Below are positions 10,747-64,000 of a DNA stretch of 64,000 bases, piece by piece. Within the stretch, counting starts at the first letter, position 1; each line of letters starts with the position of its first letter. Made by a program: the position numbers and the translations under genes. The notes under the pieces are model-generated. The model was not told the DNA's origin. It did not search any database and saw only the letters and a list, made by a program, of their open reading frames with translations. Source of the DNA: Longimicrobiales bacterium (GTDB lineage Bacteria > Gemmatimonadota > Gemmatimonadetes > Longimicrobiales > Gaopeijiaceae); the NCBI GenBank assembly GCA_965116905.1, contig OZ220732.1, positions 1,760,001-1,824,000 of the forward strand, given 5' to 3'.

Positions 10747-12345
10747 ATGCGATCCGCACTCGCCCTCATTCCCGCCCTGATCCTCGCCGCCGCGCCGGGG
10801 CCGCCCGCCTCGGCCCAGACCTATGACGTGCTGATCACCGGAGGCACCGTCGTGGACGGCACCGGGGCCGACCGATTCCGCGCCGATGTCGCCGTGGTCG
10901 ACGGCCGCATCGCGCTGGTGTCCCCGGAGCCCATTGACCCGTCCCTTGCGGCCACCGTAATCGATGCCACCGGCCAGGTCGTGACTCCCGGCTTCATCGA
11001 CAACCACTCCCATGTCCAGCAGACGATCGCGGAGTATCCGCTCGCCGAGAACTTCCTGCGGCAGGGGATCACGTCGCTGATCGTGTCGCTGCACTCCGGC
11101 GACCAGCCGTGGCCGCTGGAAGAGTTCGCCTCGGGGCTGACGATGGCGCCCAACGTGGGGTTCTTCGCGGGCCACACCTGGACGCGCAAGCAGGTGATGG
11201 GCATGGAGAACCGCGCGCCCACGCCGGCCGAGCTCGACGAGATGCGGGCGCTCGTCGACCAGTCGATGCGCGAGGGGGCGCTCGGCTTTTCGACGGGACT
11301 CCTGTACGTGCCCGCCAACTTTGCCGAGACCGAGGAGGTCATCGAGCTGGCCAAGGTCGCGTCGGCGCACGGCGGCATCTACGTGAGCCACATGCGCAAC
11401 GAGGCGAGCGGGCTGCTGGAGTCGGTGGCCGAAGTGATCCGGATCGCGGAGGAGGCTGACATCCCGGCCCAGATCAATCACCACAAGGCCTCCGGGGCGG
11501 GGCAGTGGGGCTGGAGCGAGAGGAGTCTGGCGATGATCGACTCGGCCAACGCGGCCGGGCTGACCGTCACGCACGACCTGTATCCGTACGCGGCCTCGAG
11601 TACGAGTTCGGCCATCCTGTTTCCGCAGTGGGCGCTGGCCGGCGGAGCCGAGGACTTCGCGGCCCGGGTTGCCGATCGCGAAACGCGGGCGCGCATGGAG
11701 GAGGATATGCGGCGCATCATCATGACCGACCGGGTCGGTGCCGACATGTCGCGGATCCAGTTCCGGGTGCTGGGCTCGGACGAGTCCTACAACGGCAGGA
11801 CGCTCGCCGACTACGCCGCCGACCGGGGCCTCCCGAACGACCTGGAGACGGGCATCCAGCTCGCGATCGAGCTGCAGCTCCAGGGCGGCTTCAGCGCCAT
11901 TTACCACGCCATGGACGAGGGGGACGTGATCCGGATCATGCAGCATCCGCTGGCGATGATCGAGACGGACGGGGACGCGGTGGGCTACGGGATCGGCTAC
12001 CCGCACCCGCGCAGCTATGGCGCGTTCCCGCGGGTGCTTGCCAGGTATGTGCGCGAACTGGGTGTGATCACGCTGGAGGAGGCCGTGATGAAGATGACCT
12101 CGATGCCGGCCCGGTGGCTGGGCCGCGAGGACATGGGGGTGATCGCCGAGGGCATGCGCGCGGACGTCGCGGTCTTCGATCCCGACGTGATCGCGGACCG
12201 CGCGACGTTTTCGGACCCGCACCAGTACAGCGTGGGGATCAACGACCTGCTGGTGAACGGGGTCCCGGTGATCCGCAGCGGCGGCCTGACCGGCGAGAAG
12301 CCGGGGCGGTGGCTGCGCGGGCCGGTGCGGAGGCCGGTGAGTTAG
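10747..12345 (+). CDS. N-acyl-D-amino-acid deacylase (D-aminoacylase) family amidohydrolase, secreted
   Basis: Signal peptide; PGFIDNHSH; STGLLY; SHMRNE; HPRSYGAFPR. Confidence 0.9.
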   Translation: MRSALALIPALILAAAPGPPASAQTYDVLITGGTVVDGTGADRFRADVAVVDGRIALVSPEPIDPSLAATVIDATGQVVTPGFIDNHSHVQQTIAEYPLAENFLRQGITSLIVSLHSGDQPWPLEEFASGLTMAPNVGFFAGHTWTRKQVMGMENRAPTPAELDEMRALVDQSMREGALGFSTGLLYVPANFAETEEVIELAKVASAHGGIYVSHMRNEASGLLESVAEVIRIAEEADIPAQINHHKASGAGQWGWSERSLAMIDSANAAGLTVTHDLYPYAASSTSSAILFPQWALAGGAEDFAARVADRETRARMEEDMRRIIMTDRVGADMSRIQFRVLGSDESYNGRTLADYAADRGLPNDLETGIQLAIELQLQGGFSAIYHAMDEGDVIRIMQHPLAMIETDGDAVGYGIGYPHPRSYGAFPRVLARYVRELGVITLEEAVMKMTSMPARWLGREDMGVIAEGMRADVAVFDPDVIADRATFSDPHQYSVGINDLLVNGVPVIRSGGLTGEKPGRWLRGPVRRPVS

Positions 12346-52813: not shown

Positions 52814-52893
52814 TACGACAAAATCGGACATTTTACGACAATTTCGGACACTAACCCGTCAATTTCGGACAACTAACCCGTCAATTCCGGCGA
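52814..52893. repeat. Four ~21-bp-period copies of a CAATTTCGGACA-like motif
   Basis: Cores at 52819, 52839, 52860, 52882; AT-rich. Confidence 0.75.
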
Positions 52894-53011: not shown

Positions 53012-53509
53012 GTGTGGATTGCGGCGGCGACCGTCGTCCTCGTGATCGTGCTGTACGCCCTGACTGCGTTGTTCTTCGCCCGGGGCCGCTGGTTCGGGCC
53101 ACGCAACATCGACATGTCGCTGGACGCGGGCGTGCGGCATCTGCTCGACGAGTTCCTGACCGAGTTCGGACGCCGCCTCCGGTGGAACCCGGCATCGAAG
53201 GAGCGGCTGCGCGCCGCCGGTGAAGAAGTGCTTCTCAGCCTCGCGGCGCATGACGGTGAAGAGGCGGCCGGGCTGCGGCGCCTGCGCGTGGCGGTGCGTC
53301 AGGACAAGGGGGTTGCCGTGCTGGAGTTCCTGGCGTCGCCCCAGGGGACCAACTTCGAGGAACAGCTGAAGCTCCTGGAGGAGCATGCGGCTCCGGCCAC
53401 CGACCAGGAACTGTCGCTACGCCTGCTCAACCACCATGCGTCGTCGGTGCGCCACCGCCACTACCACCTCAACGACCTGCTCACGGTTCGGGTGGAGGGA
53501 TCGCGGTAG
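53012..53509 (+). pseudogene. Probable 5'-truncated membrane protein (one TM helix + soluble C-terminal domain)
   Basis: No clear RBS/ATG; ELSLRLLNHHASSVRH...TVRVE resembles, from memory, C-terminal extensions of some transporters. Confidence 0.4.
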
Positions 53510-53601
53510 AACGGCCGGGGGCGCGCCGAGCGCCACCAGGGCAGGGGCGTCCGGGCACGCTGCAGGTGCCGTGTGGCTGTTAGTTTATATGTGGACGCCC
53601 C

Positions 53602-53880
53602 GTTGTGAGCAAGCCTGATTTCCGAACCGGGTCGGGGGCATGGTGGTCAGGTACGTTCATATGTCCGGCCTCTTGATGCGGCGCTCGTCGGCCGCGGGCC
53701 CGTATGGTTTTCGTGAGATCGGATCCAAATCAGTTTAACGGGCTCTCAGGCCCTCTAAACCAGGCTGGTTTTTCCGACCCCGTCTTGCTGACTGTTTGCC
53801 CTTACTCCGCTTCGTCCGTCCTGCCGCCCACGTCTCTCGGCAGCGTCTCTCTACTGTCGATTCCCCCCTTTCGGCGCCCC
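53602..53880 (-). ncRNA. Candidate bridge/seekRNA of the IS1111-type element (3' non-coding region)
   Basis: Stem GGGGUCGGA/UCCGAUCUC enclosing an internal loop that matches the AGTTTAG target; second stem-loop flanked by ACAUAUGAAC, matching the donor junction; boundaries approximate. Confidence 0.7.
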
Positions 53881-53882
53881 GT

Positions 53883-54100
53883 TCAGGCCGCAGCGCGAAC
53901 CCGGTAGACCTCCTTCCGCGTGGCCACCGCCCAGACCCGCCGCGCCGTCCGGTTGGCGAGCGCCACCGCGACCAGCTTCTTCGGCTTGCGCGCCAGCATG
54001 CCGGCCAGCCACGGGTCCGCGGCCTCGTCGCGCCGGCTCGCGTGCCGGATGACCGCCATGGCTCCCATGACCAGGAGCCGCCTCAGGTCGCGCTGGCCCA
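53883..54100 (-). pseudogene. IS110 transposase C-terminal fragment
   Basis: GQRDLRRLLVMGAMAV...VAVALANRTARRVWAV. Confidence 0.9.
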
Positions 54101-54555
54101 GCGGATCGGAAGTAGCCGAAATCCCGGCAGGAAATCGTCTAAAGTCATACAGGACTGCACGATCTGCGTTTCCTGCCGTAGTACTGGACCCTACTGGATC
54201 TTGCCACGAACGCGGGAACGCCGGACTTGAATGGCGGGAATCCCGCCCGAATCACTTCTTGATGGGCGACCATCGGGACGATAGCCTTGGCCTGGCACAT
54301 GTGAGGCTTCCTTGCGGGCGGTTAGGCCTGCCCATGCGGGTCTACGCCCTACGACTGGTGACGTCGGGCCAATACGGCCCCACCTGACCCCCTTTCGCTG
54401 GTCGGCGGTTGGAGAATGGCTCCGAATACGCCCATCAGAACGAAGCCGACGAGCTTTGCCATGGACGCACCCTCGTTTTGCACCTCGGGTGGACGCGCCG
54501 CAACCCCGGGCATAAACGGATTGCCCCCCGGCCCAGGGTTGCGGCATTCTCCTTC

Positions 54556-55119
54556 CTACCCCTCCCAAAGCACGAGCCAGAGCGCTTCATCCGGATGGTT
54601 GCGCGCATCCTCGCGAATCTCGTACCGGCGCGCCGAGTGGCAATACGGAACGCCGCAGGCCGCCCGCTGCCCCGACGCGTCCACGCTGGCTCCAGTCGCT
54701 TTGGGCGTTCTGTAGACGGAGAGGAGCCATCGGCCGCGGCGCGGCTGAAGGAGCCACGAGATGTCACCTCGGGCGACAGGCTCGCCGTTCTGGTGCAGTG
54801 CGGCGAACACGCTGACCCTCCCGTCTGCCGGCAGTTCGATCGGCGGCGAGCCCTGGTTCGCGCCGCTGAAATTGGACGCGTCGAGTATTCGCGTCTGCTC
54901 TCCGGCGACGAATACGTCGACGACGAGGCCGGCGAGGCCGGCGGAGTCGGTGAGCGAGGTGTTCACCGGCACACGCTCGCCCGACCCCACCGGCCATTCC
55001 ACCGTATAGGGGCGCGTTCTCTCCCAGCGGTCGCCGGCGTACACCTCGAGCTGCGCCGTGTCTTCCGGGGCGGTGCACGTCGCCGCCAGGGCACCGGCCA
55101 AGAGTGGTAGCGCGCGCAT
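54556..55119 (-). CDS. Hypothetical lipoprotein-like cargo protein
   Basis: MRALPLLAGALAATC signal with lipobox-like Cys; starts 1 bp after the upstream gene stop. Confidence 0.6.
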   Translation of the reverse strand: MRALPLLAGALAATCTAPEDTAQLEVYAGDRWERTRPYTVEWPVGSGERVPVNTSLTDSAGLAGLVVDVFVAGEQTRILDASNFSGANQGSPPIELPADGRVSVFAALHQNGEPVARGDISWLLQPRRGRWLLSVYRTPKATGASVDASGQRAACGVPYCHSARRYEIREDARNHPDEALWLVLWEG

Positions 55120-55120
55120 T

Positions 55121-56807
55121 TCAGTTGTTCCCCATGCTCTTGAGCCACGTCGAGCGGATGTCGTTCGCGTTCCAAGATGATGGTCGCGTGACTCTCACGC
55201 CAGACGGGGCGCTGATGCCGGGAAAGTGGTCGTCGTGCGCATCGTCGTCGACTTCTCCCTCCAAGCACCAAATGAAATCGGGAACAGAGTTCATCTGGCT
55301 GCTTGGTGTGCGGCACGTTCGAATGACCGTCATCACCTTGTCGGGATCCAGATCCGTCTTGTCGTCGCCCTCGTTGTTTTCATCGATCAGGTCCCACAGC
55401 GCTGCGGCGACGTTGCCTTCGATCTCCGCCGGCGCGCCGTCGTCGCGCTCCAACTTCGACCAGGTCTCCCAGCCGAAACGGTCGTCTGGCGATCCGATGT
55501 CGCCGCCGTAGTCGGCCAGACCTTCGGACATTGCGCAACTGTACGAGGACACCGAATCGGTGTAGTGGGGGTTGCAGTTCGACGTGCGCCAGATCCCCCC
55601 CAGCTCCTCTTCATGCAGGGCGTGGGTGAATTCGTGTGCGGATACCCAGGGCCGGTCGTAGTGGCCGCGGAACACGATCTCGTCGTCGTCGTCATCGTAG
55701 TAGCTGGCGGGCGGGGTCTCGTCGTCCTCGTTGAACTCGCGGAACCTGAACGTGCTCCGGCTCCTGTTGTAGCCGAAGTGGTCCTCGATCAGATCGATGG
55801 CATCGTCGTCGAGATAGCTCCACGGCAGGTAGAGCTGCCTCGCTCCCTCTACATTCTTCGTGCCGTCGCTGCAGTCGCTGTACCTGACCTGGAAGGAGGC
55901 GAGGCGGTGGCCGCCGTTGATGTCCGACGTGGTGGGGTTCTTCACGCTACCCCTGCCGACCTGCTCCGCGTAGCCCACGCAGGGCACGTTCAGGATCCCG
56001 CTGGAGGGCACCGTCCGAATCCAGGTGGAGATAAGCTGGCCCCGCTCGTAGTAGTCGACCCGCAGCTGCGCACCTTCCATCGCTACGTTGTCGCCGAACC
56101 GATCCTCGGTATAGGCGTAGAGCCTGAACGTGCCTGCGGAGGCCGTTGCGCTTGCCGCAGTGGTGACTCCTGTCGCCGCGGCGGCGCTGGCGCTCCCATT
56201 GATCCACGCCTCAAACGGTCCTGGCTGCGCGACGACCTCGGAAGGGAACACAGATTCGTCGAACACCCTGGTGACGAACCCGCCGCCGTCGATCACGTAC
56301 AGCCACGCCTCGTGAAGGACATCGTCGAACACGTAGGCGCTCTTGTAGCCACCGTCGGTGTCGGCGAAAGCGGTGATCTTGTAGTATCCCTTCTTGTCGA
56401 TCTCGCCGATTTCGACGATTTGTTTCCACTGCTCGCCACGCTCCATTTTCGGTAGCGTCCAGCTCTTGACCACGGGCGCCTTGCCGCCCGGGACGACGCC
56501 GTTCGCCATCGCGTTGAACGTAGGCAGCCTGACTTGCACTTCACCTCCGCTGATGTCCGCGACCGCTACGGCCTCGATGTGGACGGTGATCGGTGTACCC
56601 GGTGCCAACTCGCCGGTGACCTCGAAATCAACATCGAGGCGGGATTGATACTTCTCGGCGTTAGTGCCGTCGTCGGTCTCCTGTTGGTGCGCCGTGATCA
56701 TCGGCGCTGGATGTTCGGTGTGCTCTGCCCTAGGGGCAACCTGGATCGTCGGTGCAGGCGGCCATGAGCAGCACGCCCGCTGTCAGAAGGCATCTGTGGT
56801 GTCGCAT
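55121..56807 (-). pseudogene. Secreted HExxH zinc-metalloprotease-like lipoprotein, frameshifted after the signal peptide
   Basis: AAGGAG RBS + MRHHRCLLTAGVLLMAAC at 56807, stop at 56730; body ORF 55121-56701 (SAHEFTHALH...SEGLADY) is offset by 1 nt. Confidence 0.7.
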
Positions 56808-57001
56808 GGGATCTCTCCTTGCGTGTTTCCCTGTTTGCTTTCCGGTCGTCCGTTTGAAGCGCCCAGCGGGAGCTCCGCGGCTGATACGCCCATCGGTGGT
56901 GCCTCCTTCCAGTAGAGTTCAAGGATTGCCGCGCGACTCGTGTAGCCGTTCGCAGGGCGAGTGTTCGCACCAAAGCTGGCAACACGTATCCACCCTCACT
57001 A

Positions 57002-57060
57002 GAGGGAAAACCCTGTGATTTCGTGAGGGAAAACCCTGGACTTCATGAGGGAAAACACGG
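57002..57060. repeat. Three direct repeats GAGGGAAAACCCTG at 22-23-bp period
   Basis: Copies at 57002, 57025 and degenerate at 57047. Confidence 0.8.
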
Positions 57061-57529
57061 GGTTCGGGTGGGGGAATCCCTCTCACTCGGCCATGTCGTC
57101 GGACAGTTCCAGAGGGCTGCGAGGTGGCTGCGACGGGAGCAGATTCGTCCAAGTCGATGGCTTCGCAGTGTCCGCGAACTCCACGCCTGACTGGCTGATG
57201 GGAACCCGGACGGGGACGTTTGGGCGCGCCGCTGGTGGCAGTGTCCAGCGGCTCGCGTACCGCGCTGAACCTCCCGGAACGCAATGGGACTTGTAGGTAG
57301 TATCCGACAGGTTGACTTGCTGGCGAGCGGCTCTCCAGCGTTCGGGCATGGAGACGCCGAAGCAGTTGTTCGACACGCGGTGAACGTGTTCCCCAAGGGC
57401 CTCGCCTTCCCCGACGCCTTTCGTGACGAAGCTCTTGGACGGCTTGGGCCGGCGAGCTTGTCCGCGACTGCTCGATAGGCGTGGTTCCGGGCGATGTCCG
57501 GTGAGACGTTTTCGCGGGCGGTCCACGGG

Positions 57530-57570
57530 GCTGGCTTGGCCACGCTAAGGTGGACAAGCCAGCATACCCC
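57530..57570 (-). other. Putative oriT with ColE1-like nic site
   Basis: 14-bp IR 57530-57563 (1 mismatch); minus strand GTATGCTGG^CTTG vs ColE1 GTATACTGG^CTTA; upstream of mobC. Confidence 0.72.
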
Positions 57571-57653
57571 TTGGGGCCACACTCCGTGAGTCCCCTGCGG
57601 AGGCTGGCGGGAGGCTGCGCCCCCTCTGACCCCGCCAACGGAAACGGCGCGCC

Positions 57654-57992
57654 ATGAGCCGGGGACGCGCCGTTTGGGTGAGGGTGCGCGCCAGCGAGGC
57701 GGAGCGCGCCGAGTGGCACGCCAAGGCGCGCTCGGCAGGCCTCACGCTGTCGGATCTGGTGCGCCGGGCGGTCGGCCGGACGCACACGTGGACCGTGGCG
57801 CACGCCGAGGTCGAGCGCGAGCGCACCCGGCAGGTGGCGCGCGTCGGCAACAACCTCAACCAGATCGCTCGCTGGGCCAATGCCCACAAGGAGGGCGTCG
57901 AGGCCGTCGAGGTGATCGGCCACCTGATCGCCATCAGGCGGGCGCTCGGCGCCTTGGAGCCCGCCGAAGACCCGGACGCGGATGCACCTTAA
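57654..57992 (+). CDS. mobC: MobC/MbeC relaxosome accessory protein
   Basis: RHH-like N-terminus (VRVRAS...GLTLSDLVR); RVGNNLNQIARWAN MobC signature. Confidence 0.92.
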   Translation: MSRGRAVWVRVRASEAERAEWHAKARSAGLTLSDLVRRAVGRTHTWTVAHAEVERERTRQVARVGNNLNQIARWANAHKEGVEAVEVIGHLIAIRRALGALEPAEDPDADAP

Positions 57993-59547
57993 GTTCCTGG
58001 CGCACGGAACCGGATCGGCCCGCAAGGCGGCCAAGTACCTCCTCGGCGAGCTTGACGCGGCCGGGAAGCCGCGCGAAGGCGTCGAGGTGCTCAGGGGAGA
58101 TCCCCACCAGGTGGCCACCGTGGCCGATGCGCTTCCCTTCGAGCACAGGTACACGTCCGGCGTGATCGCGTGGGCGCCGGAGGATCAGCCGAGCGACGAG
58201 CAGATCGAGGCGGTCGTGGACGCCTTCGAGAAGACGGCCTGGGCGGGGCTGGACTTCGACCGCTACGCATGGACGGCGGTGCTGCACCGGGAGGAGGGCG
58301 GCGGTGCCCATGTCCACGTTCTGGCCGCGCGCTGCGACTTGGAGACCGGACGGAGCTTGAACATCGCCCCTCCGGGCTGGGAGAAGACCTTTGGCCCGCT
58401 CCGGGACGCCTTCAACCATGAACACGGCTGGGCTCGCCCGGACGATCCGGCGCGGGCGAGGGTGCAGCAGCCGGGCCACCGCGCCTACATCGAGGCGGCG
58501 CAACTGCGGGCGGGCCTCCGGCTCGAATCCTCCCCCCGCGACCTGATCCGCGACTACCTGCTCCAGCGCGTCGAGAACGGGACCGTGCGGAATCGCAACG
58601 AGGTCGTCGAGGCGCTACGCGAGGCGGGCCTTGAAGTGCCGCGCCAAGGCATGGACTACGTCACCGCGCTGGACCCGGCGACGGGGGACCGGTGGCGGCT
58701 GAAAGGAGAACTGTATGGAGAGAACTTCGACCGCGAACGATTTGACCGCCCGGCTCGGGAGGCGGCTGGAGACCGAACGCAGGGAGATCGAGGAGTTGAC
58801 CGCGAACGAGCTGGAGCGGCTCGGCGAGAACTCGCGGCGCGTCGCGAGGCGCGCGCTGCGTTCCATCGAGCGCGATACGGCGGAGGCGGTCGGGAAGATG
58901 CGCGAGTTGCTGGTCAAGGCGTGGATCCGGCCGCTGATCGTCGGCATGGCGCTCTGGCTCGGCATCTTCGTCGGAAGCTGGGCGACGATGCAGTGGTTGT
59001 CGAGGAGCGTTCAGGACCGGATCGAGGACATCGAACTGGCGAAGATCGAGATCGAGGGAGGGCGCGAGATGATCGCCGAGATCGAGGAGACGACCTGGGG
59101 CGTGGGGCTGCGGGAAGTGAACGGGGTGCGGTACGTGACGCTGCCGCGCGGCACGCCGGTCCTGACGGCCTTCGCCGTGGTCGGGCGGCCCTACGTCGAG
59201 CTGTCAAGAGAGTGAGGAGGCTGCATGACCGAATTGGAGAGGCAGTTGATGGAGGCCTTGAAGAGGTTGTCCGCGCAGTCCGAGACGGAACGGCGGCGGC
59301 AATCCGAGCAGGTCGAAGCCTTGCGGCGGCGCGTCGAGCGGCAAAGCGGGGAGAACGAAGCCTTGCAGCAGCGCGTCGAGCGGCTGAGCGAGGAGAACGA
59401 AGCCTTGCAGCAGCGAATCGAGCGGCTCGACGTGCTGGCGACACGCTTGGCCGAGTATTTCGGGACATCCGCCGTCGCGAGACCGCGCGGCCTCCGTATC
59501 TGATGCGGCGACCGGGACCGGATCGCGATCAGGGTCCGAGCCGCTGA
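57982..59547 (+). CDS. Relaxase, MbeA/MOB_P5-like
   Basis: YLLG motif I, VLRGDP, YTSGV motif II, HREEGGGAHVH (3H motif III), RLKGELY. Confidence 0.9.
   Translation: MHLKFLAHGTGSARKAAKYLLGELDAAGKPREGVEVLRGDPHQVATVADALPFEHRYTSGVIAWAPEDQPSDEQIEAVVDAFEKTAWAGLDFDRYAWTAVLHREEGGGAHVHVLAARCDLETGRSLNIAPPGWEKTFGPLRDAFNHEHGWARPDDPARARVQQPGHRAYIEAAQLRAGLRLESSPRDLIRDYLLQRVENGTVRNRNEVVEALREAGLEVPRQGMDYVTALDPATGDRWRLKGELYGENFDRERFDRPAREAAGDRTQGDRGVDRERAGAARRELAARREARAAFHRARYGGGGREDARVAGQGVDPAADRRHGALARHLRRKLGDDAVVVEERSGPDRGHRTGEDRDRGRARDDRRDRGDDLGRGAAGSERGAVRDAAARHAGPDGLRRGRAALRRAVKRVRRLHDRIGEAVDGGLEEVVRAVRDGTAAAIRAGRSLAAARRAAKRGERSLAAARRAAERGERSLAAANRAARRAGDTLGRVFRDIRRRETARPPYLMRRPGPDRDQGPSR
58715..59215 (+). 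CDS. mbeB: MbeB-like mobilization protein (nested in the relaxase gene, alternate frame)
   Basis: AGGAG RBS; coiled coil + TM helix + TWGV...RYVTLP, like ColE1 MbeB. Confidence 0.8.
   Translation: MERTSTANDLTARLGRRLETERREIEELTANELERLGENSRRVARRALRSIERDTAEAVGKMRELLVKAWIRPLIVGMALWLGIFVGSWATMQWLSRSVQDRIEDIELAKIEIEGGREMIAEIEETTWGVGLREVNGVRYVTLPRGTPVLTAFAVVGRPYVELSRE
59225..59503 (+). CDS. mbeD: MbeD/MobD-like coiled-coil protein (nested in the relaxase gene)
   Basis: GAGGAGG RBS; MTELERQLMEAL N-terminus and ENEALQQRVERL, typical of MbeD. Confidence 0.82.
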   Translation: MTELERQLMEALKRLSAQSETERRRQSEQVEALRRRVERQSGENEALQQRVERLSEENEALQQRIERLDVLATRLAEYFGTSAVARPRGLRI

Positions 59548-59651
59548 TGGCGTCCAGTCGCACAGCCGACCGCACGTCTAGCGGAGAAGCCATTCCGGCG
59601 CGAAGTTTGGGGCGCGCAGATCGTGCAGTCCATCGAGAGAGGAATCGAACG

Positions 59652-60812
59652 ATGGCACGCACGAAACGAAGTCGGCGCTCCTACGGCGCCGGCGAATGGG
59701 GCCGGAATCGGGTGAGGGTGTTTCCTGATCCCAAGACCGGCCGATACCAGATCGAGTGGCGAGAGAACGGGCGCAGGCTCACGAGGTCGCTCAAGCACCG
59801 TGACTGGTCGCGGGCCAAGAGGCAGGCGGACGAGGTTGCCGCTGGCCTCGCGGTCCACGAGCCCAACGGCAAGACCGAGGCCGAGCCCGAGCCACTCACG
59901 CTGACTACGCTTTTTGACATCTACGGGGAAGAGGTGACGCCCACCAAGGCGCATCGCACCCGGCGGCGGGACAGAGTCACAATGGCGATGTTCCTCAAGT
60001 TCTTCGGCAGGGACCGAAGGCCTGAAACCCTTTCCCAGCGGGACTGGGACCGCTTCATCCGAGAGCGTCGCGCGGGCAGGGTCGGCCCCAGTGGGAAGCC
60101 TGTGGGCGACCGGATGATCGAATGGGACCTGACGTTCCTGATGGCAGTGCTGAACTGGGCGGCGAGGTCGAAGGACGAGCACGGGCGCCCGCTCCTCGAA
60201 CGGAACCCGCTGAGGGGTCTCAGGAAGCCCAGGGAGAAGAACCCGACCCGCGTTGTTCTCACGGAAGAGGAATACCAAGCGCTTCTCCGGGTGTCGCGGC
60301 AGGTCGGCTGGCGATTCCACGTCGCTCTCGTGCTCGCCCACGAGACCGGGCATCGGATCGGCGCGATTCGCAACCTCCGGTGGGCGGATATCGACATCGA
60401 GGGAAGGACCATCCGGTGGCGCGCCGAACACGAGAAGAATGGGTACGAGCACCGAACGCCGCTGACCGACGAGGCCCTCGCTGTCTTGCAGGAGGCGTGC
60501 AGGATGGGTGCCGGGACTGGAAATGCCCCAGTGCTTCCTTCGTCAAGGGATGCTACGCGGTGCATTCACCGCGTTTCCGCATACCAGTGGTGGAGGAAGG
60601 CGCAGACGCTCGCGGGATTGGAGCCGAAAGCGCGACGGGGTTGGCACTCGCTGAGGCGCAAGTTCGCCAGCGACCTGATGGATCAGCCGCTGAAGGTGCT
60701 CTGCGAACTTGGAGGCTGGAAGGCGGCCAAGACCGTTCTCCGCTGCTACCAGCAACCGGACGAAGCGCAACTCCGGCAGGCGATCCTGAGCCGCCGCAGG
60801 CCGCGGGGGTGA
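59652..60812 (+). CDS. Tyrosine recombinase/integrase
   Basis: TGHRIGAI (R), HEKNG (K), HSLRR (HxxR), LGGW, LRCY (Y); basic N-terminal arm-binding-like domain. Confidence 0.92.
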   Translation: MARTKRSRRSYGAGEWGRNRVRVFPDPKTGRYQIEWRENGRRLTRSLKHRDWSRAKRQADEVAAGLAVHEPNGKTEAEPEPLTLTTLFDIYGEEVTPTKAHRTRRRDRVTMAMFLKFFGRDRRPETLSQRDWDRFIRERRAGRVGPSGKPVGDRMIEWDLTFLMAVLNWAARSKDEHGRPLLERNPLRGLRKPREKNPTRVVLTEEEYQALLRVSRQVGWRFHVALVLAHETGHRIGAIRNLRWADIDIEGRTIRWRAEHEKNGYEHRTPLTDEALAVLQEACRMGAGTGNAPVLPSSRDATRCIHRVSAYQWWRKAQTLAGLEPKARRGWHSLRRKFASDLMDQPLKVLCELGGWKAAKTVLRCYQQPDEAQLRQAILSRRRPRG

Positions 60813-60906
60813 AATCCGAATCGGCGGGAATCAAACAGCGGGAACTCGCACGCCGAATCCCGTAACGTCAATGGTCACAAACAGATCCGCACGGGATAGA
60901 GCATGA

Positions 60907-61718
60907 TGGCCCATCTTCGATATCCTGCCCAGCCTCGGCTTGCCTCCGGTCGTGTGTTGCCGGGGCACGAGACCGAGCCAGGCCGAGAAGTCGCGCCCGC
61001 GCCGGAAGCTCTCCATCGGCGGCGCGAAGGCCTGGATGGCCATGGCGGTGACCGGCCCGATGCCCGGGATCGTCATCAGCCGCGTCGTCTCCTCACTCTC
61101 CCGGGCGCTCGTCCGGATCTCCCGGTCGAGTCCGCCGATCTTCTCGTCGAGTTCCTCGATCCGCCCGAGAAGCACCGAGCCCAGCTCGACGACCGCCTCC
61201 GGCAGGCCACAGTCCCCGTCCTCGATCACCTCAGCCAGCTGCGCGATCCGGGCCCTGCCCTGCGGCGCCACCACGCCGTACTCGGCCAGGTGGCCCCGAA
61301 GCGCGTTGATCGTCTGCGTGCGCTGGCGCACCAGCAGGTCGCGCGTGTGAAAGCGCATCGCCCGCGCCTGCTGGGCTTCCGACTTGACCGCCACGAAGTG
61401 CATGGTCGGTCGCTGCGCCGCCTCCGTGATCGCCTCCGCGTCGGCCGCGTCGTTCTTGCTTCGCTTGACGAACGGCTTCACGTAGATCGGGGGAACCAGC
61501 CTCACCTCGTGGCCGAGCGCCAGGGTCTCCCGGCCCCAGTAGTGGGCGCTGGCGCACGCCTCCATCGCCACCGTACACGGCGGCTGCGATGCAAGAAAGC
61601 CCAGCAACTTCCCGCGGCTCAGCTTCTTGCGGTATGCCACCGACCCGTCCGCCCGGGCCCCGTGCACCTGAAAGCTGCGTTTTGCCAGATCGATCCCGAT
61701 GATGGTAACCTCTTCCAT
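60907..61718 (-). pseudogene. IS110 transposase N-terminal fragment (DEDD domain); reads through into the insert to a stop at 60831
   Basis: GIDLAK, MEAC, KNDAADA, TIPGIGP, WLGLVPRQ; homology ends at ISKMG. Confidence 0.92.
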
Positions 61719-61943
61719 GTGGATGCCTCCTCCCTGTGATGGTCAGACCTCTCAAGGTCGCAATCGCTTCAGTACCATCCTTGGCACATTGCGATGCCGC
61801 CGGGAGGGGGCGTCCACTCCATCAGTTTAGCGCGTAAGCTGAACCATGAGCAGGACACCGCCGGGGGATAGGCTACATATGGGGGGGATAGGCTACGTAT
61901 TGGTGCCGTTTGCGGCGGACTGTGGGAAACGGTTTTCCTTGGA

Positions 61944-63344
61944 CTAGCGCCCGGCCCCCAACGCCTGCGCCAGAAAGGCCACCGCCCGGGGAATGGCTGC
62001 GCGGAGATCAAACACGTCGTGGCCGGCCCCCTCATAAATGTACGCCTCGAACTCGGGCGGGCCCCGCCCCAGGGCCTCCATCGCCGCCATGAGCGCCTCG
62101 GCCTGGGAGACCGAGACCGTCTGGTCGAAGGAACCGTGATGAAGCTGCACCGAGGGCAGGTCCAGCGCGAAGAGGGTGGAGGAGCGCCGCACCAGCTCCA
62201 GTCGCATGTCCCCGCGGGAGTACTCGCCGCGTATGTGGGGCTGGATGAAGGTCGAGTCGAGGTGGGCGACCCCGGTAAGTTCACGCGGCGTGCGCAGGGC
62301 CGCCTCGCGCACGATCTCGCGCACCCAGTCGTCGAAGAAGTACGTCGGGCCGAAGAACGCGACGATCCGTGCGATCCGCGTGTCCCGCACCCCTGCCAGA
62401 AGGGCGACCCCCGCGCCCCGGCTGCCCCCGAAGACGTTGATCGAGTCGGCCTTCGCCTCGGGCGTGGTCTCGATGGCCACGTTCACCAGGGCCAGAAAGT
62501 CGTCCACGTCTTGGTCCCACGGGCTGGGTGGGCCCTCGGAGATCCACACGCTGTCGCCGTGAACGAGTGGCTCGGCCCGAAACGACGGGATCACGTACAC
62601 GAAGCTGTCGCGCAACTCGCCGAGCGCGAACGCCGCAATCTGCACGTCGCCGATCGACACGCCACCGTCTCCGCCGTGCAGGTAGGCCAGGACCGGCAGG
62701 CTTCCCTCGGGCGCGCCGTCGGGCACCAGGATGGCGCCGTAGTGGCGCACCCCGGCGACGCTGTGGGAGACGACGCGGAGATCGACTTCGGAGCCCGCCA
62801 GATCGAGCCGTTCGGCCAGCTCCACCCGCACCTCCGCCGCGGAGACGTCGCGTGCGGCCCAGTCGGCGCGCACGGCGTCGATCTCGGCGTCGGTCGGGGC
62901 CATGAAGAGGGTATCGAGTTCCGCCTCGAGGTCGAGAGCGACCGCCGTCACCGTGGTCGTGGCACTGGCCGCGGTGACCGTGATGGTGTGTTGCCCCGGA
63001 TCCGGCCCGAGGGTCCAGCTCGTGGCGGCCGTCCCGTCGCTGCCGGTGGTGGCCGAGGCGGGGTCGGCAGAACCCTGGCCCGCGGCGGGTGCAAACGTGA
63101 CCGCCTGGCCCGACATCGGCTGGCCCTGGGCGTCCAGAACGCGGACCACGATCGCGTCGGCGAGGGACAGCCCCTGCACGGTGCGCTGGTCGGCTCCCGA
63201 GAGGGTCTGGACGGTGGTGGGGGTGGGGGGTGCGGGTGGCTCGACGGGCGGTTCGACAGGTGGCCCGAGGGATTCGCTGCAGGCGGTGAGCGAAATGGCG
63301 GCCAGGAAAGCGACGAATGCGATGGGCCGAAGTCGTGGAGACAT
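61944..63344 (-). CDS. Lipoprotein with Ig-like (Big_1) domain and alpha/beta-hydrolase domain
   Basis: Lipobox LTAC; GQPMSGQAVTF...WTLG; HGG, GGSRG, HGSFD, GAGH. Confidence 0.82.
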   Translation of the reverse strand: MSPRLRPIAFVAFLAAISLTACSESLGPPVEPPVEPPAPPTPTTVQTLSGADQRTVQGLSLADAIVVRVLDAQGQPMSGQAVTFAPAAGQGSADPASATTGSDGTAATSWTLGPDPGQHTITVTAASATTTVTAVALDLEAELDTLFMAPTDAEIDAVRADWAARDVSAAEVRVELAERLDLAGSEVDLRVVSHSVAGVRHYGAILVPDGAPEGSLPVLAYLHGGDGGVSIGDVQIAAFALGELRDSFVYVIPSFRAEPLVHGDSVWISEGPPSPWDQDVDDFLALVNVAIETTPEAKADSINVFGGSRGAGVALLAGVRDTRIARIVAFFGPTYFFDDWVREIVREAALRTPRELTGVAHLDSTFIQPHIRGEYSRGDMRLELVRRSSTLFALDLPSVQLHHGSFDQTVSVSQAEALMAAMEALGRGPPEFEAYIYEGAGHDVFDLRAAIPRAVAFLAQALGAGR

Positions 63345-63391
63345 GCCGTGGAAGCTCACGAGGCCCGGCGGCGCGCGCAACAAGACACTAC

Positions 63392-63431
63392 TTTGACGGC
63401 CACCACGCCAGTTTGACGGCCACCACGCCAG
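63392..63431. repeat. Perfect 20-bp tandem duplication TTTGACGGCCACCACGCCAG
   Basis: Two adjacent identical copies in the divergent intergenic region. Confidence 0.85.
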
Positions 63432-63485
63432 GACACTCATGCCGGTGTCCTGGTTGCGTCTGAGCCTCCAGCCGCCTCGCGACCC

Positions 63486-64000
63486 ATGAACCCAGGCCAC
63501 GCCATTGCCCGCCGCTCTTTCCTCGCTTCGGCCGCCGGCATCGCGCTGGCGGGCGCCGGGGCCGCATGCCGGGAGTCCCGGACCGGCACGTCCGACCCCG
63601 GAGCCGACGCGCCCGATCCTCAAGCCGACCTTTTCGTCGTCAACATGCTCGGCGGGATCCGCAATCCGAACATCCCGAGGTCGGGAGGGCCGTCCGGAGC
63701 CCTTGAGGGCGAGCGGCGGACCTCTCTCGACGACCGGGCGCTTGCCGACGCCATCGCCTCCGGCACCGCCGCGGTCAATACCACAATCGGCTATGTCGCG
63801 GGTCCCCGGGAGCCCTTCGAAAGCTCCGTGGCCGACATTGCCCGCTGGAACACCATCATCCGGACGCATCCCGACGCCCTCCTGAAGGTCTGGGCGGCGA
63901 GCGACATCGAGAGGGCTGCGGACGAGGGCAAGGTCGGCATCATCCAGGGTTTCCAGAACGCCGCGATGATGGGGGACGACGCCCAGCGGGCCGGTGTCTT
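63486..64000 (+). CDS. Tat-exported membrane dipeptidase (M19)-like protein, truncated by window end
   Basis: Hand translation: MNPGHAIARRSFL (Tat motif)...GTAAVNTTIG...DIERAADEGKVGIIQGFQN. Confidence 0.75.
   Translation, partial: MNPGHAIARRSFLASAAGIALAGAGAACRESRTGTSDPGADAPDPQADLFVVNMLGGIRNPNIPRSGGPSGALEGERRTSLDDRALADAIASGTAAVNTTIGYVAGPREPFESSVADIARWNTIIRTHPDALLKVWAASDIERAADEGKVGIIQGFQNAAMMGDDAQRAGV

Follow-up and report, generated by a model that had tools for sequence, protein, structure and literature searches.

Background

How does a mobilization module of the ColE1 type come to stand beside an integrase, rather than a replicon, in a chromosome of the Gemmatimonadota, and does its organization suggest that it still serves conjugative transfer? 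The question is raised by a stretch of 64,000 nucleotides (here termed the window) from a Longimicrobiales bacterium (contig OZ220732.1, positions 1,760,001 to 1,824,000), within which a first-pass annotation, made from the letters alone, had noticed an origin of transfer (oriT), an accessory gene (mobC) overlapping a relaxase gene, and two smaller genes nested within the latter. Here it is argued, with a probability of about 0.78, that these features belong to an integrative mobilizable element (IME) that uses the mating channel of a co-resident integrative and conjugative element (ICE).

Relaxases of the MOB_P5 family have been treated as plasmid-borne (PMC8683028, PMC6160057), and the ColE1-like mob regions known from outside the Gammaproteobacteria are likewise on plasmids (PMC3447787). 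Most MOB_P5 relaxases have a histidine-glutamate-asparagine (HEN) motif III, but those of the MOB_P53 subfamily, whose prototype is that of pAsal1, have three histidines (3H; PMC3394729).

The element and its target site

The element is chromosomal, spans 54094-60913 (6,820 bp) and is bounded at both ends by the 7-bp direct repeat TGGCCCA. Its ends and target are as follows:

53588..61838, minus strand: IS110 interrupted in its transposase gene by the element; its 5' part is 61838-60907, its 3' part 54100-53588; target site, outside the element
54094..54100, plus strand: left attachment core TGGCCCA, 7 bp, direct repeat of 60907-60913; also present at the empty-site joint of metagenome run X2
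54101..54245, plus strand: conserved left arm; GCGGA adjoins the core, 54152-54168 is a 17-bp motif, and the repeat GCGGGAA stands at 54212 and again at 54234
60813..60906, plus strand: conserved right arm; the repeat GCGGGAA occurs twice (60824, 60838)
60907..60913, plus strand: right attachment core TGGCCCA, direct repeat of the left core

The core occurs once within the intact IS110 alleles of two relative loci (L007 and L054), and the empty site itself is seen in run X2, where a contig fuses 54093 to 60907 with seven letters in common; loose ends in runs X1 and X3 are consistent with this. (The joints in X1-X3 may derive from other IS110 copies, yet they still reveal the target.) Between the ends lie only two cargo open reading frames (ORFs), the oriT, the mob genes and the integrase; there is no rep-like ORF in the element and no Rfam match at E<=1 across 53500-62000. 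The locus thus combines an integrase, attachment-site direct repeats and an empty target site, as integrative elements do, with its own relaxase, a predicted oriT and no mating-pair genes, as mobilizable ones do, and the integrating element without a replicon that the first-pass annotation had envisaged is what was found. The GCGGGAA and 17-bp features of the left arm are likely to be arm sites for the integrase. As to the site more generally, IS110 is missing from it in run X3, and in X1 and X2 a joint runs from 53731 back to 53588.

An intact mobilization module

The module comprises an oriT and four genes, two of them nested in the +1 frame of the relaxase gene:

57553..57640, minus strand: oriT of pAsal1/ColE1 layout, with the boxes GGGGGCGCAGCC and CGCCAGCC, a hairpin of imperfect pairing, and GGTATGCTGG/CTT; predicted nick 57559/57558
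57654..57992, plus strand: mobC/mbeC, ribbon-helix-helix accessory protein, 112 aa (Pfam MobC, NikA-like)
57982..59547, plus strand: mobA/mbeA relaxase, 521 aa, MOB_P5-type, 3H motif III (Y19; H102, H110, H112)
58715..59215, plus strand: mbeB homologue, 166 aa, one hydrophobic segment, nested in the relaxase gene
59225..59503, plus strand: mbeD homologue, 92 aa, coiled coil, nested in the relaxase gene

That mobC overlaps an MbeA-like relaxase gene, as first proposed, is confirmed: the overlap is 11 nt, equal to that in ColE1, and the relaxase has both the tyrosine Y19 and H102-x7-H110-x-H112. Among the profile searches that had been suggested at the outset, those with Pfam MobC (38.6 bits; a NikA-like profile gives 49.3), Pfam Relaxase (29.1 bits, cut-off 24.6) and Pfam MbeD_MobD (25.0, cut-off 21.6) all exceed their cut-offs; NCBIfam MbeA matches the relaxase at E=1e-26, yet its 93.8 bits are under the cut-off of 500. 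The mbeB product has no Pfam match in these searches; a profile of its family matches ColE1 MbeB at 23.5 bits (reversed controls reach at most 3.7), its HHalign probability against an MbeB profile is 95.7%, and two Actinobacillus MbeB proteins are not picked up by the family profile.

Conservation of the nested ORFs, without which the first-pass reading was to be abandoned, was assessed in relatives of the module, namely the best 77 loci of 400 in GTDB genomes, 67 of which have sequence enough for such counts. As in ColE1, both nested ORFs are in the +1 frame, and each has a GGAG/GAGG site upstream; mbeB is intact in 64/67 relatives and mbeD in 62/67, the relaxase frame spanning them in 62 and 60, respectively (three loci with a misplaced relaxase start are scored as misses). 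Within 52 ungapped relatives the +1 frame contains stops over the relaxase domain in 52/52 and over mbeB in 0/52, while the +2 frame over the mbeB region is closed in all 52; the openness of the +1 frame over mbeB exceeds chance. The ratio of non-synonymous to synonymous substitution rates (dN/dS) is 0.16 for the relaxase domain and, in the mbeB overlap, 0.64 for the mbeB frame against 0.98 for the relaxase frame, values that indicate purifying selection on the relaxase domain and on the mbeB frame. Two nested genes of the MbeB and MbeD kinds, each led by its own ribosome-binding site, are thus borne out by the profiles, by HHalign and by the frame-stop counts, and the oriT-mobC-mobA array with nested mbeB and mbeD is, judged from sequence, a real and intact module.

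The origin of transfer

As in other MOB_P5 systems, a CTGG/CT site, from which nicking is predicted, lies upstream of mobC on the opposite strand. Here the site is CTGG/CTT, on the minus strand, with the cut between 57559 and 57558, a position that we take to be as in ColE1. The nic-like site had been noticed initially, and its conservation upholds it: the sequence GTAnGCTGGCT, sought in 55 relatives, is kept in 41, interrupted by another element in 7 and degenerate in 7. Conservation declines 2 nt past the proposed cut, and 33/33 alignments entering the oriT end at 57517-57562. The boxes and the GCTGG/CT site occur also in pAsal1, pAsa3, a Halomonas plasmid and IN45P; among 1000 random stretches of host DNA, 0-1 attain the local alignment score for four of the six plasmids tested, 27 do so for ColE1 and 81 for a Citrobacter plasmid. 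An inverted repeat formerly assigned to the oriT (57530-57538 / 57557-57565) is present in the window, whereas its partner arm occurs in 0/41 relatives; as a functional part of the oriT this window-specific repeat is rejected.

A relaxase of the ColE1 superfamily with three histidines

Motifs I-III of the relaxase can be aligned with those of MbeA, and motif III is H102-x7-H110-x-H112, the 3H form, as it is in 120/120 homologues among the matches listed; the HEN form that characterizes MOB_P51 and MOB_P52 is absent. H-x7-H-x-H is shared with pAsal1, pAsa3 and five other plasmid relaxases compared. Identity is 64% to the relaxase of IN45P and 49% each to those of pAsal1 and pAsa3 (over ~240 aligned residues), and 31% to that of ColE1; a sequence search of the PDB with the relaxase gave no match. 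The first-pass annotation had taken HEN to be the motif III of ColE1/MOB_P5 plasmids and the 3H motif to denote a new, divergent branch; neither view can be kept, the former because of the 3H relaxases just named and the published MOB_P53 subfamily (PMC3394729), the latter because that subfamily is 3H and the oriT matches that of pAsal1. The 3H state in MOB_P5 is, in short, already known.

In a careful tree of 21 rows (from which RA3 and most near-identical rows were left out, and whose three outgroups are MOB_P1 only, MOB_P4 being used as well in the motif comparison), the relaxase clusters with MOB_P5 plasmid relaxases, split from the outgroups at 100/100. The element family (99/98) is sister to IN45P (81/93), and the fork at the base is unsupported; a clade with pAsal1 obtains 86 in the Shimodaira-Hasegawa-like approximate likelihood-ratio test of a quick tree, and the same fork is open in the careful one. 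The phylogeny, also proposed in the first pass, places the relaxase with MOB_P5, though the approximately unbiased test does not reject a placement as sister to every MOB_P5 plasmid (p=0.34). By sequence, then, relaxase and module are of the ColE1 superfamily (MOB_P5-type), and strict membership in MOB_P53, whose mark within MOB_P5 is the 3H motif III found here, is likely. The idea that a mob region of the ColE1 family is paired here with an integrase, and not with a replicon, is supported by this grouping, by the nested ORFs and by the element ends. In an Arsenophonus plasmid (L091), motif III is H-x6-E-x-H, intermediate between 3H and HEN, and the relaxase is sister to the HEN clade.

The integrase and the 7-bp cores

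Downstream of the module lie the integrase gene and, in its leader, a second copy of the left-arm motif:

59615..59631, minus strand: 17-bp motif of the left arm in inverted orientation, 20 bp before the start of the integrase gene; conserved family-wide
59652..60812, plus strand: tyrosine integrase, 386 aa (R235, K262, H332, R335, W356, Y366)

The six residues are presumably the catalytic set of the family. No match to the integrase was found among 72,556 plasmids, phage matches are weak, and a sequence search of the PDB yields weak XerA-like matches only; 453 cluster representatives match at E<=1e-30. An intact integrase follows the mob module directly in 44/62 loci. The 17-bp motif and its leader copy form a perfect inverted repeat (54152-54168 / 59615-59631) kept throughout the family, and at position 3494706 of the host genome a leader copy stands before a cargo gene, not an integrase; as an inversion switch the repeat is rejected, its copies being constant in left ends and in the leaders of integrase genes.

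To compare cores, 39 left and 75/81 right element ends were collected, and left-right pairs were chosen via core match, eight of them at a fixed offset. Ten elements could be closed in this way; they have eight different 7-mer cores, each at both ends. Five pairs of elements with right arms at least 94% alike are at unrelated sites, and the core is the same in four pairs and differs by one base in the fifth (read by eye after an offset), while more distant elements do not share cores. The window's own core recurs at a different flank in another locus (L159). An independent metagenome scan gave at least 72 distinct left junctions with 48 different 7-mers, and the core CGCGTAG at 7 distinct flanks, among the matches listed.

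A family spread through the host's relatives

Of the 77 best loci, 68 are titled Gemmatimonadota, nine of these on one chromosome. In the host's family the element family occurs in 20/41 genomes, and the relaxase in 19/40 of those sampled, a single genome having as many as 14 matches; in two other families of the order the relaxase is present in 0/80 sampled genomes. Many copies are on multi-megabase contigs, at unrelated sites. The host family is probably sponge-associated, going by record titles and by run X3, a metagenome from a sponge in which the flanking DNA is nearly unchanged. The varied cargo that the module flanks comprises secreted proteins, nucleases and restriction-modification genes.

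In a distant host, a relaxase 86% identical to the window's occurs together with the integrase on a 546-kb contig of a genome titled Bryobacterales, the backbone of which is only 31-60% like the host's. A locus on that contig (L239, G156:C6:100001-110000) has restriction-modification-like genes 83-92% identical to those at 53894-63886 of the host genome (G000), the cargo region of an element there at 50-68 kb; such cargo has, from these sequences, probably moved between distant hosts.

A candidate helper

A search of the host genome for a type IV secretion system and coupling protein, as had been recommended, identified a likely helper for the window's element:

G000, contig C1, 3481153-3580128 (L102-L107): MPF_T-like ICE, 99 kb, at a tRNA gene

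It carries VirB2, B3, B4, B6, B8, B9, B10 and B11, the coupling protein and ArdC, and was located via weak TrwB_AAD matches, Pfam T4SS-DNA_transf and CagE_TrbE_VirB having no match in the host genome. Its integrase belongs to the same family as the window's, at 70% identity, and many sibling elements are nested in it. Within the host family a VirB4 homologue is present in 13/20 relaxase-positive against 5/21 relaxase-negative genomes (kin that are not independent); a coupling-protein search, which drew on another set of genomes (4/41), does not enter this comparison. Mobilization of pAsa3 and pAsal1 was most frequent with an MPF_T plasmid (PMC11504919).

Between VirB8 and the coupling protein the ICE encodes an unannotated 306-aa protein (L102:18584-19504), which is found by itself, too, on a 9-kb element whose integrase is of this family (L109:9748-10647). 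It has 2,390 homologues and is modelled as a winged helix with a weak nuclease-like domain; in fold comparisons, winged-helix proteins and nucleases of the restriction type match it weakly (best E=0.035; Z 5.4). Going by the model, it is possibly an unrecognized relaxase, which we would liken to MOB_C; this is a lead only.

Proposed mechanism and its alternatives

The IME would operate as follows. Acting at the 7-bp core, the integrase would recombine the element out as a circle; MobC would bind the oriT, and MobA would nick it at 57559/57558. If their roles are those of MbeB and MbeD in ColE1 (summarized in PMC5935869), membrane-anchored MobB (the mbeB product) may help to connect the relaxosome with the coupling protein of the helper, and MobD may serve in entry exclusion. 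In the recipient the integrase would then insert the circle where a site matches the element's own 7-mer, and this would account for targets being so varied and for cores drifting slowly from lineage to lineage. Several results weigh against the IME reading. An excisionase gene was looked for in the element and none was found. Neither the contigs of the metagenome runs compared with the window (contigs drop rare forms) nor a pattern search of metagenome and viral contigs contained a circular junction, and a single, degenerate right-left join was seen in 5 genomes. In the mbeD frame dN/dS is 0.81, measured over its first 28 codons, which denotes weak selection. An 18-kb P4-like island with AlpA interrupts a trbJ-like gene of the ICE, so that the helper may be inactive; and a VirB4 homologue is absent from 7/20 relaxase-positive genomes, one positive being a fragment of 73 aa.

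Such an interrupted helper would suit an element that moves only within genomes, by means of its integrase, and for which the mob module is captured plasmid DNA, cargo no longer used for conjugation; broken mob genes in some relatives, and the same integrase on elements without this relaxase, agree with that view as well. It is nevertheless hard to reconcile with a relaxase dN/dS of 0.16, with four ORFs (two of them overlapping) and a nic motif that are kept down to ~55-60% mbeB/mbeD identity, and with the near-identical module in a distant host, and is considered improbable. Less credible still, and thought very improbable, is a small MOB_P53 plasmid co-integrated or misassembled into the chromosome and replicating via an unrecognized replicon: the nearest named relaxases are indeed on plasmids, and three GAGGGAAAAC-type repeats at 57002-57076 look iteron-like, but these repeats recur at two other host-genome places only (2071983 and 3928596 of G000) and are not shared with relatives, which leaves the iteron reading unsupported; moreover, a rep-like ORF or RNA family is lacking, the ends within IS110 are precise with an empty site in other data, and many copies are on multi-megabase contigs.

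The integration step has an alternative of its own, namely that the 7-bp repeats are target-site duplications, or that the target's 7-mer replaces the element's after a mismatched exchange of the Tn916 kind, without any targeting by the core. The 48 different 7-mers in 72 left junctions would then be expected, as would the tracking of the local allele by the 7-mer at a shared oriT or mobC site and one host-genome element whose ends are one base apart; yet near-identical elements at unrelated sites have the same 7-mer in 4/5 pairs, CGCGTAG recurs at its 7 flanks, and the enzyme is a tyrosine recombinase. On balance this alternative is unlikely, if less so than the two above, and it alters the integration step alone; the IME reading stands with it.

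Insertion into sibling modules

Many targets are themselves parts of related elements. The 72 left junctions, among the matches listed, fall in integrase genes (7), oriT (6), mobC (4), relaxase/mbeD (2), tRNA genes (4) and unassigned sequence (49); thus at least 19/72 are inside sibling modules, which make up 0.41% of the host genome (inherited insertions may be counted repeatedly). Positions 57873-57879 of mobC are an insertion site of sibling elements in relatives, and the 7-mer at this hot spot is identical to the window's core, a 7-mer occurring 783 times in the host genome; going by this match, the window's lineage may stem from such a mobC-type site. Six closed members have the nic-like site and integrase and no relaxase, and 6/6 are inside a sibling mob module, in a sample of loci centred on relaxases and hence biased toward finding nested insertions; relaxase-less, oriT-only members are located within the mobC, oriT and relaxase of siblings.

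A three-tier chain of parasites, all from one integrase family, can tentatively be proposed, although it is judged somewhat less likely than its negation: the ICE gives the channel, elements of the window's type give a ColE1-type relaxase, and oriT-only members ride on that relaxase. Since target choice would follow the 7-bp core carried by each element, lineages might have come to specialize in the mobC, the oriT next to the nick, the relaxase or the integrase of their kin, which they would disable or take over. Separately, four loci (L011, L021, L055 and L060, at ~10,750-12,100) have head-on insertions near the 3' end of a sibling integrase, in the region of the catalytic tyrosine, and a run X1 contig of depth 80 joins the oriT (57634) to the integrase leader (59637), skipping the mob genes, and represents an oriT-only relative in that run.

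Relation to known systems

The nearest known systems are the MOB_P53 plasmids pAsal1 and pAsa3 of Aeromonas and IN45P of Methylomarinovum, which resemble the window in the 3H motif, mobC/mobA overlap, oriT layout and GCTGG/CT site; mobB is nested in these plasmids as it is here, and in pAsa3 mobD is too. They are, however, replicating plasmids of Proteobacteria with Rep proteins, whereas the window's element has an integrase and attachment sites, no rep, and kin on chromosomes mostly of Gemmatimonadota. With ColE1 it shares gene order, the 11-nt overlap, mbeB and mbeD in the +1 frame and, ahead of mobC on the same strand, CTGGCTT and GGGGCGCAGCC; it differs from this MOB_P51/HEN system in its 3H motif, its relaxase (31% identity), the weak likeness of the oriT as a whole and the absence of an RNA-primed replicon.

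On the integrative side, MobP IMEs (NBU1, NBU2, Tn4555, Tn4399) and low-specificity IMEs (Tn5520, Tn4555) likewise have an integrase, their own relaxase and oriT, no mating apparatus and multiple copies (PMC5704250). The window's element, compared with them by published descriptions, differs in a ColE1-superfamily relaxase with nested B and D genes and in what appears to be core-guided targeting through a variable 7 bp; the portions of that review cited here contain 0 mentions of ColE1. Streptococcal IME_oriT, IMEs in ICE conjugation genes and oriT-only islands (mobilizable genomic islands, or MGIs, and iOriT) insert at an oriT or transfer genes and borrow a relaxase, as here; in the present family the targets are instead the oriT, mobC, relaxase, mbeD and integrase of sibling elements, and the integrase family is common with the ICE. 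MobP IMEs, low-specificity multi-copy IMEs, IMEs in the oriT or transfer genes of ICEs, and oriT-only islands have all been described (PMC5704250, PMC11389934), and no description was found in the open-access literature of a MOB_P5 module on an integrative element or of such elements in Gemmatimonadota or sponge symbionts. The parts are known; their combination and the sibling-targeting family are undescribed in searchable open-access papers.

Here an integrative element has taken up a module of a type treated as a marker of small proteobacterial plasmids, and the module has multiplied through a bacterial family, which suggests a way for genes to pass between uncultured symbionts. Such modules will in many cases escape gene callers and MOB typing: MOB-suite labels several close plasmid relatives non-mobilizable. 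If target choice does track the 7-bp core, the family offers a natural series for the drift of site specificity and for mobile elements that prey on kin.

Cargo and other features

The two cargo ORFs of the window's element, neither of which has a family match, are:

54556..55119, minus strand: lipoprotein-like ORF, 187 aa
55121..56701, minus strand: 526-aa ORF with an HExxH motif

A lipoprotein-type signal lies directly upstream of the 526-aa ORF in a different frame, so this gene is probably frameshifted. The stretch 57300-57430 is conserved ~1 kb upstream of many relaxases and resembles what is left of a short gene, of which other elements have a longer version (L105:6374-6889). Short direct repeats with a spacing of 20-23 bp stand upstream of genes at 57002-57076 and 52816-52871 and are possibly binding sites for regulators.

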